Part shown: positions 16,149-21,217 of the stretch, piece by piece
Layout: the number at the start of each line of letters is the position of its first letter
How positions within the stretch are numbered: position 1 is the first letter of the stretch
From: a virus
Strand: one strand, 5' to 3'
IMG/VR virus record: IMGVR_UViG_3300035703_000036
Coordinates: 1-64,000 of that record
DNA: 64,000 nucleotides
Translations under genes and position numbers: made by a program
Notes under the pieces: generated by a model
The model's database searches: none
The model's input: the letters and a program-made list of their open reading frames with translations, nothing else
What the model was told of the DNA's origin: nothing

Positions 16149-19100
16149 ATGTCTTATTTATCGCCAGATACCAAAGATAGGATTATCATATCTCTTGCCA
16201 GATTAGAGGCGGGAGTAGAAGTTATCGCAGCATTGGAAGCAAGTGGTGGCGGAATCACTGAAGAACAAGTTCAATTGATGATCAACACAGCTATTACAGC
16301 TTTAATAGACGGCGCCCCAGGCGCTTTAGATACTTTAAATGAATTAGCCGCAGCATTAGCAGATGATGAAAACTTTGCTGCGACAATTGCGACGGCTTTA
16401 GGCAATAAAGAAGATAAAATCACAGCAGGAACTATTTTACAATATTGGCGCGGTGATAAAACTTGGCAAACGTTAGATAAAAACGCTATCGGTCTTGATC
16501 AAGTAGACAATACCTCAGATGCTGACAAGCCTATCAGCGATGCTACTCAGTTAGCGTTAGATAATTTACAATTAGATGTAGATAACAAGGTCGCAAAAGA
16601 CGGCGATACAATGTCTGGATCATTAACAATTGATCTAAGCATTCCAAGCAGTATTCAAACTACTGATCTTGATGGCGCTAATATGTACATTCATTTTACA
16701 GATGATGCAACAAATTTAGATGTCAACACTTCACTAGAGCCAGGCGGAATTGGCTATCATTATCAAGATAACACGGTCAATAATTATATGGCAATGAATG
16801 GGCCAGATGGACAATTGAGTTTATACAATATTCAATCCTCTGTACTATACCCAACATTACCCACAAGCGATGAACACGTAACAACTAAAGCTTACGTTGA
16901 TTCAAAAGTAGAAGACTCCATAACAGACGGCGTAACAACTAAGGCTCCATCTCAAAATGCAGTATTTGACGCGTTGGCAGGAAAGTTTGATGCTATAGAT
17001 TTCAAAAATTTTAACTACGATCAAACTATGTATGTGGCAAAAAATGGCAATGACTCTACAGGAACTGGAGGTCAGCATAGTCCATTCTTAACTATTACTG
17101 CCGCTATGAACGCAATTTCTGATGCCAGCCCAACTAAAAGATACTGTATTAAAGTTGCTGCAGGTAATTATACTGAAGCTTCTTTGGCTTTGAAAGCAAA
17201 TGTATTTATCGTAGGTGAAGGTCAAAAGGACTCAGTCAGAATTACCGGAGCTGTTTCGATGGGGCCAAGTTTTATGGCCAATTCTTCTTTTGATAACCGC
17301 TCAGGTTTTTCAATGGTATCACTTCTTTCGGTTTGTGATTTCAATTGGAATACCGTTCAGTCCGCTGCAGGAAAATTATATTTTAATGAAGTAACATTTG
17401 CCTCTACTGTAAGTCTATACGGATATAATAATGCAATAGCTCAAGCTCAATTTGATAGTTGTGTTATTTTTGGGGCAATGACCATTTCCGGAATTAACGT
17501 TGGTGTTTATACTAATAACGTAAATTATGCTAACATTACCTTAAATCAACATCCAAACGGCGGAATGGCCACTATTTTAAGTACCGCTGGAGGATATTGC
17601 GCTGGAACTGTTTCTCTTGTTACTTCAGTAACCGACTTTAATCGTAGATGTTCTCTTTTTGCTCGTTCATTTTGGATGAACGCTCTAACTGTAAACGGCG
17701 CTTCATCTTATGCTGACGTAACTTATTCAAGTTTACCTTCTGCGGGGCCAACAATACTCAATGGCGGTAATGTAGTTTATATTAATCCAAGTTCAACCGG
17801 AGCAAATACTCAACTTTCTAATCTTGCTTTTCCTACAGCGGTAAATAATCCAATTATGCCTGCCGTTACAAGCAATACTAATTTAGGTGATTGGGGAAAA
17901 CAGTGGAATTGGACTTTTTCATACGTACACGGCTCTTCAGGTTCAGACTGCTATGTAATTAGCTATCCAAGCTCTTACGCGCCTGATAGTTCAGGTAGAG
18001 AAGTTGGTATTTATGCGGACGGTGCAGGTCTTCAAACAAACGTTAACGGCGGAAATATTACGTTAGGAACTTCCGCAGTATCGGGAACAGGGATCAGAGG
18101 AAAGGTTCAAGTTGACGCTAGAGAGCTTGACATGACTTCTTCCAAAATTACTAATTTAGCCGACGGAACAGCTTCTTCAGATGCGGTTAACAAAGGTCAG
18201 CTCGATGGAAAATTTAATAATCCAACAGGAACTGTTGCTGATTATATAGCGGGAGACGGATCTATTCAGCCATTCCCAACCATAGCAACTGCTTCAAATT
18301 TAACTACAGAAGTTTATAACAAAAGCGGATCTCAGATCAATAAATTTCAAGTGGTCTATATTAATGGTGGACAAGGAAATTTACCAGCTATTACATTAGC
18401 TCAAGGTAATTCTGAAGCAACTTCAAGTAAAACTTATGGAGTTGCTCAAGCAGACATTTCAAACATGAGCAATGGATATGTTTTAGCTCAAGGTAGAATT
18501 GAAAATATTGATACGGCAGTTTATGGCGGAACCGAAGGAACTTCATTGTGGTTGAGTCCGACCGTTGCTGGCGGAGTAACCATTACAAAACCATCAGCCC
18601 CTGATCACATGGTATTTGTCGGGACTATTGTTAGATCTCACCCAACACAAGGTGTTGTTGAAGTAAAAATTCAAAATGGTTTTGAGCTTCAAGAATTGCA
18701 CAATGTTGCAATTAATGGATCTCTTGCTAACAACGATACTCTTCTATATGATTCTGCAACGCAGCTTTGGAAAAACTCTTCAGCAGGGTCTGTTGTTAAT
18801 AAATTAACAAAGGGTACAAAAACTATTTTCTGTATCGACAATGGAGATTTTGCAACAGGACAAGCAGCAATCGATGCCGCCTCTCCAAATGATATTATTA
18901 TATTCGGTACTAAAGCTGGTGGATGGGGAGATCTAGTTATTCCTGCCGGAAAAACTCTTTCATTAAAAGGTTTACAGGCTGGAAGAAGTCCAAATATGGT
19001 TCAGGTTGGATCTATTACATTTAGCCCGACAACAGGTGCGAACATACTTCAGAACGAACTTTATATCGATAGCTTATACATTTATAGTACAACAGCGGAT

Positions 19101-19676
19101 TGCATTACTCACGGCGGAACTGCTCCGTCTCGTATAAGAATTAGTAATTGCTACATTAATTGCGCTGGAGCAGCTACTAGGGCTGTGGTATTTTCAAATA
19201 CTCACGCTACTTCATCGTCTTATTTGTATGACAATATAATTGGATCTTCTGCTGCGGCTACCGTAATTCAATCAAGCATAGCTTATGCTAGAGCATACAG
19301 AAATAGCGTAGACGGATCTAACGTAGGGATTACTTTGACAGCCGGAACTTTTGAAAATAATCTAACAAATTATTCAATCAATTTTGCAGGAAATGTTGCA
19401 AATATTACCGGCGGAACTTTTTTATGTGGATATTCGCTTATTTCAAATACGGGCGCAAATAGCTCTGGAGTTGCGGTTTCAACCGGAGCGGTTTTTGCAA
19501 GTTCTTACAACTCATTTTCAATTCCAACAGGAACTGGATATTGCGTAAGAGGAACTGGCGTTCATGTGTACGGATCTATGACTTTTGCAAACTCAGTACT
19601 CGCTGCTTATAACGTAAAAGTACAAAATACATTAACAAACGTAGCATATACTACGGCATTTACATTAACACCATAA
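16149..19676 (+). CDS. tail fibre/tailspike with two beta-helix regions
   Basis: APGALDTLNELAAAL, VDNTSDADKPIS, YVAKNGNDSTG..G..PFLTITAA and KITNLADGTASSDAVNK motifs. Confidence 0.8.
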   Translation: MSYLSPDTKDRIIISLARLEAGVEVIAALEASGGGITEEQVQLMINTAITALIDGAPGALDTLNELAAALADDENFAATIATALGNKEDKITAGTILQYWRGDKTWQTLDKNAIGLDQVDNTSDADKPISDATQLALDNLQLDVDNKVAKDGDTMSGSLTIDLSIPSSIQTTDLDGANMYIHFTDDATNLDVNTSLEPGGIGYHYQDNTVNNYMAMNGPDGQLSLYNIQSSVLYPTLPTSDEHVTTKAYVDSKVEDSITDGVTTKAPSQNAVFDALAGKFDAIDFKNFNYDQTMYVAKNGNDSTGTGGQHSPFLTITAAMNAISDASPTKRYCIKVAAGNYTEASLALKANVFIVGEGQKDSVRITGAVSMGPSFMANSSFDNRSGFSMVSLLSVCDFNWNTVQSAAGKLYFNEVTFASTVSLYGYNNAIAQAQFDSCVIFGAMTISGINVGVYTNNVNYANITLNQHPNGGMATILSTAGGYCAGTVSLVTSVTDFNRRCSLFARSFWMNALTVNGASSYADVTYSSLPSAGPTILNGGNVVYINPSSTGANTQLSNLAFPTAVNNPIMPAVTSNTNLGDWGKQWNWTFSYVHGSSGSDCYVISYPSSYAPDSSGREVGIYADGAGLQTNVNGGNITLGTSAVSGTGIRGKVQVDARELDMTSSKITNLADGTASSDAVNKGQLDGKFNNPTGTVADYIAGDGSIQPFPTIATASNLTTEVYNKSGSQINKFQVVYINGGQGNLPAITLAQGNSEATSSKTYGVAQADISNMSNGYVLAQGRIENIDTAVYGGTEGTSLWLSPTVAGGVTITKPSAPDHMVFVGTIVRSHPTQGVVEVKIQNGFELQELHNVAINGSLANNDTLLYDSATQLWKNSSAGSVVNKLTKGTKTIFCIDNGDFATGQAAIDAASPNDIIIFGTKAGGWGDLVIPAGKTLSLKGLQAGRSPNMVQVGSITFSPTTGANILQNELYIDSLYIYSTTADCITHGGTAPSRIRISNCYINCAGAATRAVVFSNTHATSSSYLYDNIIGSSAAATVIQSSIAYARAYRNSVDGSNVGITLTAGTFENNLTNYSINFAGNVANITGGTFLCGYSLISNTGANSSGVAVSTGAVFASSYNSFSIPTGTGYCVRGTGVHVYGSMTFANSVLAAYNVKVQNTLTNVAYTTAFTLTP

Positions 19677-19731: not shown

Positions 19732-19762
19732 ACAGAGGGGCTTAAAACGCCCCTTTGTTTTT
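19732..19762 (+). terminator. rho-independent terminator
   Basis: Hairpin ACAGAGGGGC-ttaaaac-GCCCCTTTGT followed by a T run. Confidence 0.8.
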
Positions 19763-19802: not shown

Positions 19803-20351
19803 ATGAATAAAGAAATAATAGAAACAATCCAATTAACTCTAAGTTCACTTAAACGCGATCCCATCGTATGTGCCAGAATTTTTTCCATAATATTTCTGTT
19901 TTATAAATTTCTCAAGAAAGACAGGATGTTCAGAGTAGATTTTCAAGCCATTATAAATTTTACAGTGTTCATGATTATGGTTACGCTTGTAAGGCTGATA
20001 GTTTTGGTTAATTTTCCAATCACAGTTCCAGCAGGATTAGAACAAGTCTCAAACATAGGAATTCTATTTGTCTTCTGGGAAGATTTGTTTTTTGCTTATC
20101 CGATCATTATAGTAGAAAACTATATCAACAACAAATACCTGAGAAATCTCCTAATTTTTGCCATTTCTTTTATGTTTATGATGGGCCATACTTATCAAGG
20201 TTTAAGAGGTCTAATCACTATTGTCATACCTTATTTTGTAATGGCTAAGGTCGGAAAGAAATACGGCTTAGGAACTTCAATGGTTGGTCACGTTATGTAT
20301 GATTTATTCACAGTGTTGACCGTTATTTTTGCATTAGCTTTATTGCCTTAG
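19803..20351 (+). CDS. CPBP (CAAX/Abi) family intramembrane protease
   Basis: Multi-TM protein; WEDLFF, FMMGHTYQG and GHVMYD match the ExxxR-like, FxxxH and HxxxD/N motifs. Confidence 0.75.
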   Translation: MNKEIIETIQLTLSSLKRDPIVCARIFSIIFLFYKFLKKDRMFRVDFQAIINFTVFMIMVTLVRLIVLVNFPITVPAGLEQVSNIGILFVFWEDLFFAYPIIIVENYINNKYLRNLLIFAISFMFMMGHTYQGLRGLITIVIPYFVMAKVGKKYGLGTSMVGHVMYDLFTVLTVIFALALLP

Positions 20352-20352
20352 T

Positions 20353-21129
20353 ATGGAAAAACCAAAGTACAACGATGAATTAAGCGAAAAGATAGGCGAG
20401 GCCTATCAATATAAAATTCGCTTAAAAAAAGCGGAAGAAGAAAAGTCCAATCCCTATTGGCAAAATGCCGACCTAGATCTTTCCAAAGCTATTGTCAAGC
20501 CAATCGATAGAACACTTGCTAAAAAAATAATTGAAGAATACGAATGGCTCGGATGTATGCCGGCGATCAGCAAGTACTATTTTGGTATATTTTTCGGAGA
20601 TGTTTGCGGCGGAGTTGTAGTTTTTAGTACTGAATATTCAGAAAATCTTGGATGCTGGAAAAAGTATGGATATGAAGGCAAGATGATATTGTTAAGCAGA
20701 GGCGTCTGCTTACATTGGACGCCAAAGAATACGGGAAGCAAGCTCATAACAAGAGCTATCAAAATGCTGCCGAAAGAATATGAAGTGATTACCGCTACAA
20801 CAGATCATTTAGCTGGAGAAGTTGGAACGATTTATCAGGCTTGCAACTTTTATTATATTGGCTCTATGCGAGATTCTAATCCAAAAGTTAATTCAAGAAA
20901 AGGCGATAGATTTGGTGTTGTGATCAATGGAAAACTATATTCAGCTAGAGCTTGCAGGGCCAAGTTTGGATCTCAAAAGAAAGCCGACATATTAAAACAT
21001 CATCCGGACGCTCAATTCGTAAAGCAAAGATCAAAGCATAGATATTTTCTGTTTAGAGGAAGTAAAGAAACTGTAGAAAAACACAAGCAAGCAATAAGTC
21101 ATTTGATTAAAGAGTTTCCTAAGAGATAA
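20353..21129 (+). CDS. mom: Mom-family (GNAT-fold) DNA adenine modification enzyme
   Basis: V.PI....AKKII..Y.W.G..P....YFGIF, GVVVF, LLSR....P.NTGSKLI.RAIK and TD...GEVGTIYQACNFYYIG motif series of Mom-like proteins. Confidence 0.75.
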   Translation: MEKPKYNDELSEKIGEAYQYKIRLKKAEEEKSNPYWQNADLDLSKAIVKPIDRTLAKKIIEEYEWLGCMPAISKYYFGIFFGDVCGGVVVFSTEYSENLGCWKKYGYEGKMILLSRGVCLHWTPKNTGSKLITRAIKMLPKEYEVITATTDHLAGEVGTIYQACNFYYIGSMRDSNPKVNSRKGDRFGVVINGKLYSARACRAKFGSQKKADILKHHPDAQFVKQRSKHRYFLFRGSKETVEKHKQAISHLIKEFPKR

Positions 21130-21143
21130 TGTTAATATTATAT

Positions 21144-21217
21144 GCGGGTGTAGTTTAGCTAAAACGCCGGCAATTCCATGCCGGAGATGGCGGTGAAAAT
21201 CCGACCTGCCCGCTCCA
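21144..21217 (+). tRNA. atypical tRNA-Gly-like RNA (TCC within an 8-nt loop, encoded CCA)
   Basis: Acceptor GCGGGTG/TGCCCGC plus T73 and CCA; D stem GTTT/AAAC; anticodon stem CCGGC/GCCGG with loop AATTCCAT; T stem GGCGG/CCG(A)CC with loop TGAAAAT. Confidence 0.85.

Follow-up and report, generated by a model that had tools for sequence, protein, structure and literature searches.

A non-canonical tRNA-Gly-like RNA beside a viral mom gene as a candidate private glycyl carrier for DNA hypermodification

Phage Mu's Mom enzyme moves glycine from Gly-tRNAGly to the N6 of adenine in double-stranded DNA, after which the adduct rearranges to N6-carbamoylmethyl-adenine (Silva et al., Nat Commun 2026, PMC13219725; bioRxiv 2023). 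This modified base blocks restriction. Mu Mom accepts all three E. coli Gly isoacceptors and rejects Gly-tRNAAla (PMC13219725), it requires its residues R111 and S124 (Silva et al., PMC13219725), and deleting its helix-turn-helix (HTH)-like insertion abolishes activity (PMC13219725). The donor work (2026; preprint 2023) assumes that Mom scavenges host tRNA, and the text of Silva et al. does not mention linked tRNA genes (PMC13219725). Here we describe a viral locus in which a Mom-family gene is followed by a 74-nt tRNA-Gly-like RNA. The locus lies in positions 1-64,000 of the record IMGVR_UViG_3300035703_000036 (hereafter the window, the whole stretch of 64,000 nucleotides that was analysed); the full IMG/VR record measures 104.7 kb and is about 66% complete. 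An earlier reading made from the letters of the window alone (the sequence-only reading) had proposed a two-part cassette, in which the RNA is charged by the host glycyl-tRNA synthetase (GlyRS), withheld from the ribosome and used to channel glycine into genome modification. This interpretation is supported as far as sequence analysis reaches, and the report of Gly-tRNAGly as the Mom donor, to which that reading had pointed, does exist in the form of the Silva et al. study.

Two further described systems are relevant. Staphylococci carry the supernumerary tRNA-Gly(UCC) species NP1-NP3, donors for FmhB, FemA and FemB, which keep the GlyRS determinants (PMC7826273). These non-proteogenic tRNAs have TGC or TGT in place of TTC in the T loop, bind EF-Tu poorly and are preferred by FmhB (Rietmeyer et al., PMC7826273), the affinity for EF-Tu being set by the T-stem pairs 49-65, 50-64 and 51-63 (PMC7826273). 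The second system is a conserved 76-bp tRNA-Gly-like locus inside a mom homologue, described from Dehalococcoides ssrA islands and a marine fosmid (McMurdie et al. 2011, PMC3146451); it was given no function there and was treated as a conserved locus and primer site (PMC3146451). In the literature we found no paper tying a mom-embedded RNA to the donor chemistry of Mom. The features of the window that concern us first are listed below.

20353..21129, + strand: mom, encoding a Mom-family GNAT of 258 aa (Pfam PF25680, 8bv8 alignment, AlphaFold model)
21144..21217, + strand: free-standing, non-canonical tRNA-Gly(UCC)-like RNA of 74 nt (cloverleaf, covariance-model relatives)
21175..21177, + strand: UCC 'anticodon' within the 8-nt loop 21172-21179 (Rfam alignment; C35 and C36 are GlyRS determinants)
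21189..21206, + strand: T arm GGCGG / UGAAAAU / CCG-A-CC, with G55 for U55 and a bulged A at 21204
21214..21217, + strand: discriminator U73 (21214) followed by a genome-encoded CCA (21215-21217)

The open reading frame (ORF) at 20353..21129, which contains GEVGTIYQACNFYYIG and has its TAA stop at 21127-21129, encodes a Mom-family GNAT, and the search by hidden Markov model (HMM) and structure bore out the family assignment of the sequence-only reading. The Pfam Mom profile PF25680 matches residues 47-257 with an E-value of 4.6e-26 (92.2 bits against a cut-off of 27.1), and the same match was obtained genome-wide. A profile built from 13 homologues can be aligned along its full length with 8bv8, the S124A mutant of phage Mu Mom and the only solved Mom structure, through a common C-terminal PYPK/FPKR end. 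The AlphaFold model of the window protein (predicted local distance difference test, pLDDT, 81; predicted template-modelling score, pTM, 0.77) likewise has chain 8bv8_A as its top PDB match (E 1.7e-11, TM 0.56/0.64), generic GNATs following at E 3e-5 or worse. All 13 homologues have R116 and S129, which fall on R102 and A115 in chain 8bv8_A. For both residues the numbers of the chain run 9 below those of Mu, an offset that we infer from the S124A mutant entry, and R116 and S129 would correspond to the essential R111 and S124 of Mu Mom. The basic C-terminal region, which had been suggested to bind DNA or the RNA, spans residues ~185-235 with predicted helices at 198-205 and 210-216, and aligns by profile with the HTH-like insertion of 8bv8 (Mu residues ~175-209), the very segment that Mu Mom needs for activity. 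Enzyme family, fold, catalytic Arg and Ser and the HTH-like insertion are all kept, and by analogy the window Mom is expected to share the donor chemistry of Mu Mom, moving glycine from Gly-tRNAGly to adenine N6 in double-stranded DNA. The two proteins differ in sequence (~21% identity) and in a 46-residue N-terminal extension of the window protein. They differ also in their setting, since Mu mom is regulated by Com, C and Dam and Mu uses host tRNAGly, whereas the window has a dedicated tRNA-Gly-like gene travelling with mom.

The RNA at 21144-21217 begins after a 14-nt gap from the mom stop on the same strand, ends 16 nt before the next ORF and lies outside all convincing ORFs; both the coordinates and the fold given by the sequence-only reading held. 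Its acceptor stem GCGGGUG/UGCCCGC has 7 bp including two G.U pairs and starts with G1-C72, C2-G71 and G3-C70, and its anticodon stem CCGGC/GCCGG closes the 8-nt loop AAUUCCAU. With C35, C36 and U73, the window RNA holds the complete bacterial GlyRS identity set (G1-C72, C2-G71, G3-C70, U73, C35 and C36; PMC9976931, PMC7826273). The remaining parts are non-canonical. The D stem GUUU/AAAC carries a 5-nt D loop, AGCUA, without GG, and the T loop UGAAAAU has G55 and A56, so the elbow contacts of G18-G19 with U55-C56 are missing. Nor does the RNA have the anticodon loop of canonical tRNAs, which counts 7 nt and has U33 and a purine at position 37. ARAGORN called zero tRNAs in the window, and the Rfam tRNA model (RF00005) gave the RNA 23 bits (E 0.026) against a cut-off of 29. 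The folding z-score was -1.56, which is not significant alone, and the RNA is an island of 58% GC in a window of 35.5% GC, placing it in the top 0.3% of 74-nt windows. The evidence from the single sequence is thus only borderline, and we judge the RNA to be more than chance because of the comparative data described below, namely its relatives and their covariation. With these data, the cloverleaf at 21144-21217 is confirmed as real but non-canonical.

The window RNA resembles staphylococcal NP1-NP3 in having G55 (TGA in the window, TGC or TGT in staphylococci) and altered D and T regions. In staphylococci, escape from EF-Tu to feed a non-ribosomal transferase has been proposed or shown; for the window RNA it is suggested by analogy. 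The staphylococcal genes are chromosomal and unlinked to the transferase genes, and their target is peptidoglycan, not DNA. They have the weak T-stem pairs A49-U65, U50-A64 and A51-U63, whereas the window RNA has G-C, G-C and C-G at these places, with a bulged A between pairs 50-64 and 51-63. The likeness is likely to be convergence, since the authors of PMC7826273 describe the NP tRNAs as a lineage confined to staphylococci. The Dehalococcoides locus, called 'pseudo-tRNA', is likewise a tRNA-Gly-like cloverleaf, placed within the first 150 bp of a mom homologue (PMC3146451). It differs in having a canonical TTCGA T loop and the D-loop GG and in lying inside the ORF, whereas the window copy is free-standing with UGAAAAU and a 5-nt D loop.

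Relatives of the RNA were gathered with patterns and covariance models. A loose cloverleaf script gave too much noise unless it demanded a G-rich acceptor and NCCA. Since MAFFT misaligned the arms, we took just the window RNA for the first covariance model and wrote its structure by hand; this model found 56 relatives at 31-68 bits. A first, strict pattern imposed GCGG, UUCC, a UG T loop and UCCA, and it matched 55 IMG/VR viral contigs. Since this pattern dictated letters of the acceptor, anticodon, T loop and 3' end, we used a second pattern that specified the T arm only and left the acceptor, anticodon and 3' end unbiased; it added at least 66 further distinct cloverleaves. Altogether the family comprises about 100 distinct RNAs. 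A blastn search of two elements against 50,697 phage records gave zero matches. The window RNA scores 84.5 bits with the family model, and canonical Chloroflexota tRNA-Gly(UCC) reaches 55-60 bits with the same model, which is therefore unspecific; membership was not defined by score alone, and the family counts rest on the non-canonical T-arm patterns plus adjacency to mom.

The covariation check, which the sequence-only reading had named, supports the fold. In 33 distinct sequences 97.9% of the cells are paired, and 18 of 21 pairs show compensatory double changes, and these are seen in each of the four helices, so also in the D and anticodon arms. The covariation score of these sequences was 0.543 compared with 0.06-0.12 for slid-partner controls; fitting the alignment to the model gives the structure an advantage, but the margin is large. 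The base at position -1 of the elements is a pyrimidine in 72 of 100, which we judged uninformative.

The positions kept across the family are those of charging. In the T-arm-only sample (here and below, family counts are among the matches listed), G1-C2-G3 (GCG/CGC) was present in 64 of 66 sequences, U73 in 63 of 66, and C35 together with C36 in every sequence. The CCA is encoded in 44 of the 66, the others having U73 followed by U-rich sequence. Decoding tRNAs have U at position 33 in essentially all cases. In this family position 33 is U, A, G or C, position 34 is U, A or C with A34 common, and the length of the anticodon loop varies from 5 to 8 nt. The D-loop GG is absent from 81 of 98 distinct family sequences, and the T-loop UUC is not kept, TGC, TGA or TGT standing in its place (TGA in the window), a triplet that the search pattern imposed in one of the two samples. 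The first pattern left the bulged T-stem A open, and all 32 distinct sequences of that sample have it; one free-standing relative (L027) lacks it. ARAGORN called 4 of the 98 distinct members. The conserved set coincides with the GlyRS determinants and the variable set with the needs of the ribosome and the elbow, as would be expected for an RNA selected for being glycylated and not for decoding. Comparison of the sequences therefore supports selection for glycylation, not decoding, as the sequence-only reading had supposed when it spoke of a charged RNA withheld from the ribosome.

The linkage to mom is equally consistent. Placement of mom relative to the element was scored with a core-domain Mom HMM. 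Mom touches the element in 55 of the 55 contigs of the strict pattern, and in the co-occurrence check over the family 119 of 123 instances adjoin mom on the same strand, the other 4 lying at contig ends where mom would be cut. The arrangement varies: 56 of the 123 lie at the extreme 5' end of the mom frame, 47 lie inside its 3' end, and 10 have the mom stop inside the element. Free-standing copies are few, among them those of the window, L001 and L027. The 5' and 3' types fall into separate clades of the Mom tree, and the RNA is sporadic in the window's clade. The window, with the RNA 3' of mom, and its sister L001, with the RNA 5' of mom, carry it on opposite sides; the L001 Mom is 80% identical to that of the window over the full match and 87% over the core, and its element is located 22 nt upstream. 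Among 80 viral loci gathered by similarity to the window Mom, three others have a related cloverleaf by mom, upstream in L001 and L069 and downstream in L027. ARAGORN, run on 60 Mom loci, called nothing at the elements. Searches of the whole 104.7-kb record with the Mom profile and for the RNA found one Mom and one tRNA-Gly-like RNA, and a tRNA search of that record found no other tRNA genes, so the claim that this is the only tRNA in 64 kb extends to the full record, of which it is the sole tRNA-like gene.

Two further arrangements were observed. Two tandem copies of the element stand 3' of one mom in L185:335-472 and in L166:4375-4519. In L004:3753-6481, a Mom 63% identical to that of the window is followed by 18 canonical tRNA genes including tRNA-Gly(UCC), and the special RNA is not there.

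A strict pattern scan of 185,579 species genomes gave 19 matches, about half of them chance matches without a cloverleaf. True cloverleaves adjoining mom were found in three metagenome-assembled genomes (MAGs), one of Aestuariivirga, one of Chloroflexi and one of Chloroflexota (L154, an unpublished genome on which no other result here depends). Four Bacillota MAGs (G007-G010; L137, L147, L150, L153, L297) have one or two supernumerary copies in ordinary chromosomal context, with T loop UGCAAUG or UGCGAUG, a bulged A and the loop CUUCCCG; these copies are uncalled by ARAGORN, and the same MAGs also hold full canonical tRNA-Gly sets (UCC, GCC, CCC). From their sequences, the Bacillota look-alikes may be cellular non-proteinogenic tRNA-Gly. 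The neighbours in L153 are BlaI/BlaR-like, creatininase and ECF transporter genes. A tRNA-Gly-like gene with a UGCAAAU T loop and no GG also lies in a 24-tRNA array of a Deinococcales MAG (L136:1267-1340), which also holds canonical tRNA-Gly(UCC) and tRNA-Gly(GCC). In a 1.5-Mb Chloroflexota genome (L285, G021:C2:141955-142030) we observed a mom-embedded element with a TTCGA T loop, the D-loop GG, A33 and the same bulged A, which is probably of the Dehalococcoides-island type of McMurdie et al. 2011.

With a Mom enzyme identified, and a real RNA that is genetically linked to it and keeps the charging positions, we consider it rather probable that the RNA is a phage-borne private glycyl carrier for Mom, chargeable by GlyRS and excluded from translation. 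The proposed cassette has two parts, the Mom enzyme and the adjacent 74-nt RNA as its private carrier of glycine. In this scheme the RNA would be co-transcribed with mom, cut by RNase P, trimmed at its 3' end to the encoded CCA and charged by the host GlyRS. Its altered elbow, T stem and anticodon loop would make it unfit for EF-Tu and the ribosome and so keep it outside translation, and by using the charged RNA Mom would have glycyl donors of its own, free of competition with late protein synthesis. Whether the scheme extends to the whole family is, in our estimate, evenly poised: Mom modifiers of many phages and mobile elements would travel with an orthogonal glycyl carrier that GlyRS loads and that EF-Tu and the ribosome ignore, and for embedded copies each transcript would be either translated or excised, setting the ratio of enzyme to donor.

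If true, a virus would for the first time be seen to encode a non-translational aminoacyl-tRNA set aside for DNA hypermodification. Viruses would then be able to keep a pool of aminoacyl-tRNA to themselves for nucleic-acid chemistry, and the principle of the staphylococcal non-proteogenic tRNAs would apply to DNA modification as well as cell walls and to viruses as well as cells. The carrier would also account for a tRNA-like locus unexplained since 2011, flag a class of tRNA-like genes missed by standard finders, and provide natural tRNA scaffolds, apparently chargeable and non-decoding, for studies of EF-Tu and ribosome discrimination and for orthogonal systems. The window copy, being among the few that are free-standing and overlapping no ORF, offers a clean construct for testing.

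Several observations weigh against the private carrier. By analogy a carrier of this kind would not be required, as Mu Mom works with host tRNAGly. The RNA occurs at just 4 of the 81 Mom loci sampled by protein similarity, and it was absent from the whole records of five Mom relatives, two of them rated 100% complete, and from five cultured Mom phages searched whole with the model. Since complete relatives and cultured Mom phages do without it, the RNA is an accessory, which is consistent with Mu Mom working on host tRNAGly. In the RNA itself, the T stem is G-C rich and not weak as in staphylococci, so that avoidance of EF-Tu would have to rest on the bulge and the elbow. The anticodon arm of the window RNA has an alternative fold with a 6-bp stem and a 6-nt loop, which could hinder contact of GlyRS with C35 and C36. 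Mom was undetected in all five assemblies with cellular look-alikes (four Bacillota, one Deinococcales); from sequence these fit a general non-translational glycyl carrier but weaken exclusivity to Mom. Finally, the majority of the family is written inside the mom frame. In the 5'-type relatives (L081-L135 and L155-L226; e.g. L083:4509-4919 and L084:1331-2083) the element makes up about codons 3-28 of mom. A stop in the mom frame was found in 1 of 33 distinct sequences of this type, against 27 and 28 with a stop in one or the other of the remaining frames. Lengths equal 1 mod 3 (76, 73 or 70 nt) in 32 of the 33. Such sequence both codes for protein and forms RNA structure. Excising an embedded RNA would destroy the mom message, so a role in cis fits at least as well there. 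This is what chiefly speaks for regulation in cis, or for a switch between being translated and being excised. The mom-frame constraint does not apply to the window, whose RNA lies outside convincing ORFs.

The main rival arises from these embedded copies. In this explanation the cloverleaf is a cis-acting tRNA mimic, a regulatory structure of the mom transcript and not a released carrier, which could limit or time the making of Mom by burial of the start region, by RNase P severing the start codon from the ORF, or, as feedback, by binding Mom or GlyRS. In Mu, the toxic Mom is under tight control, and Com opens a hairpin at the mom start. The 56 instances at the 5' end of the mom frame have a start codon and a Shine-Dalgarno sequence upstream, specifically an in-frame ATG or GTG with its Shine-Dalgarno sequence 0-7 codons before the element, often in an ATGA/GTGA overlap with the preceding gene, and the 47 instances inside the 3' end can be added to them. 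The mom frame stays open through the element with lengths in phase, one clade having lost 1 nt from its D loop and 2 nt from its anticodon loop, and at some 5'-type loci a start codon is missing between the element and the Mom core. In L089:2745-2969 and L099:3914-4093, just before the element, a small zinc-ribbon-like ORF bearing two CxxC pairs stops at the mom start or overlaps it and recalls Mu Com. However, the genes preceding embedded elements are heterogeneous, and a common Com-like partner was not among them. The window RNA lies 3' of the mom stop, where it is unable to gate initiation of mom, and elements are found 5', 3' or free-standing, with a change of place even from one sister Mom to the other. 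The conservation of C35 and C36, and of U73 even where CCA is not encoded, fits GlyRS and a CCA-adding enzyme better than an operator. We regard the cis-acting mimic as unlikely; the two roles are not mutually exclusive and may coexist.

A decoy or shield, that is, a look-alike that would sequester a host factor (a GNAT toxin acetylating Gly-tRNAGly, for example, or a tRNA nuclease) instead of serving Mom, seems very improbable to us. The toxin TacT reads Gly-tRNAGly via U73 and G71 (PMC9976931), and both are conserved in the family, but this explanation leaves the near-exclusive linkage to mom unaccounted for, and a toxin or nuclease partner was not seen in the mom flanks.

We give hardly any credence to an ordinary translational tRNA-Gly of the phage, matching for example a GGA-rich codon usage. 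The RNA does have a UCC anticodon, a cloverleaf and an encoded CCA, two sampled genes use GGA more than any other Gly codon, and phages often carry tRNAs, as the 18-tRNA array beside mom in L004 illustrates. Translational tRNAs of phages (T4-type clusters and the L004 array) are also small cloverleaf RNAs co-transcribed with their neighbours and presumably processed by RNase P. Yet tRNA finders recognise them, and they retain U33, loops of 7 nt and the GG/TPsiC elbow, whereas the mom-linked family does not: the window RNA falls under the Rfam cut-off, is missed by ARAGORN, has an 8-nt anticodon loop and lacks the D-loop GG, its T loop has G55 and its T stem a bulge, and U33 is not conserved in the family, where A34 is common and loops run from 5 to 8 nt. 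The strict tie to mom, and the status of the RNA as sole tRNA-like gene in 104.7 kb, also speak against a role in translation.

A relic of recombination or mobility, whether a host tRNA-Gly gene copied as an attachment (att) site or a pseudo-tRNA in decay that travels with mom, would suit the greater conservation of the 3' half (T arm and acceptor), as in tRNA-borne att sites, the 'pseudo-tRNA' label that annotation pipelines give the Dehalococcoides copy (PMC3146451) and the 5' end GCGGGUGUAG, identical to that of canonical bacterial tRNA-Gly(UCC), but is scarcely believable given compensatory changes in all four helices, which put the whole fold under selection, some 100 distinct versions sharing one selective pattern over deep Mom clades, and Dehalococcoides islands that integrate at ssrA and not at the element.

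Further partners were looked for in the 104.7-kb record: searches for a CCA-adding enzyme (PF01743) and for the core of class II synthetases (PF00587) found none of either. The features around mom that bear on transcription are as follows.

19732..19758, + strand: terminator-like hairpin with a T run, 3' of the tail-fibre gene (10-bp stem with 6 G-C pairs, tail TTTTATTATT; consensus scan only)
19803..20351, + strand: gene for a 182-aa multi-pass membrane protein (ORF call; weak Rce1/CPBP-like Pfam match, E 0.006, sub-cut-off)
21103..21130, + strand: weak sigma-70-like promoter match TTGATT-16-GATAAT (9 of 12 matches; ends 13 nt 5' of the RNA)

The hairpin, called strong, follows the gene of a 1175-aa tail-fibre-like protein (window positions 16149-19676), and from its sequence it is likely to form the upstream boundary of the transcription unit that holds mom. 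The stop of the membrane-protein gene sits one base 5' of the mom ATG, and for this reason the two genes are probably co-transcribed and translationally coupled. The sigma-70-like match at 21103..21130 is a possible promoter of the RNA's own; it is not significant, since the count of such matches equals the shuffle expectation. In the nearest relative, L001, TTGACA-17-TATTGT lies immediately 5' of the element.

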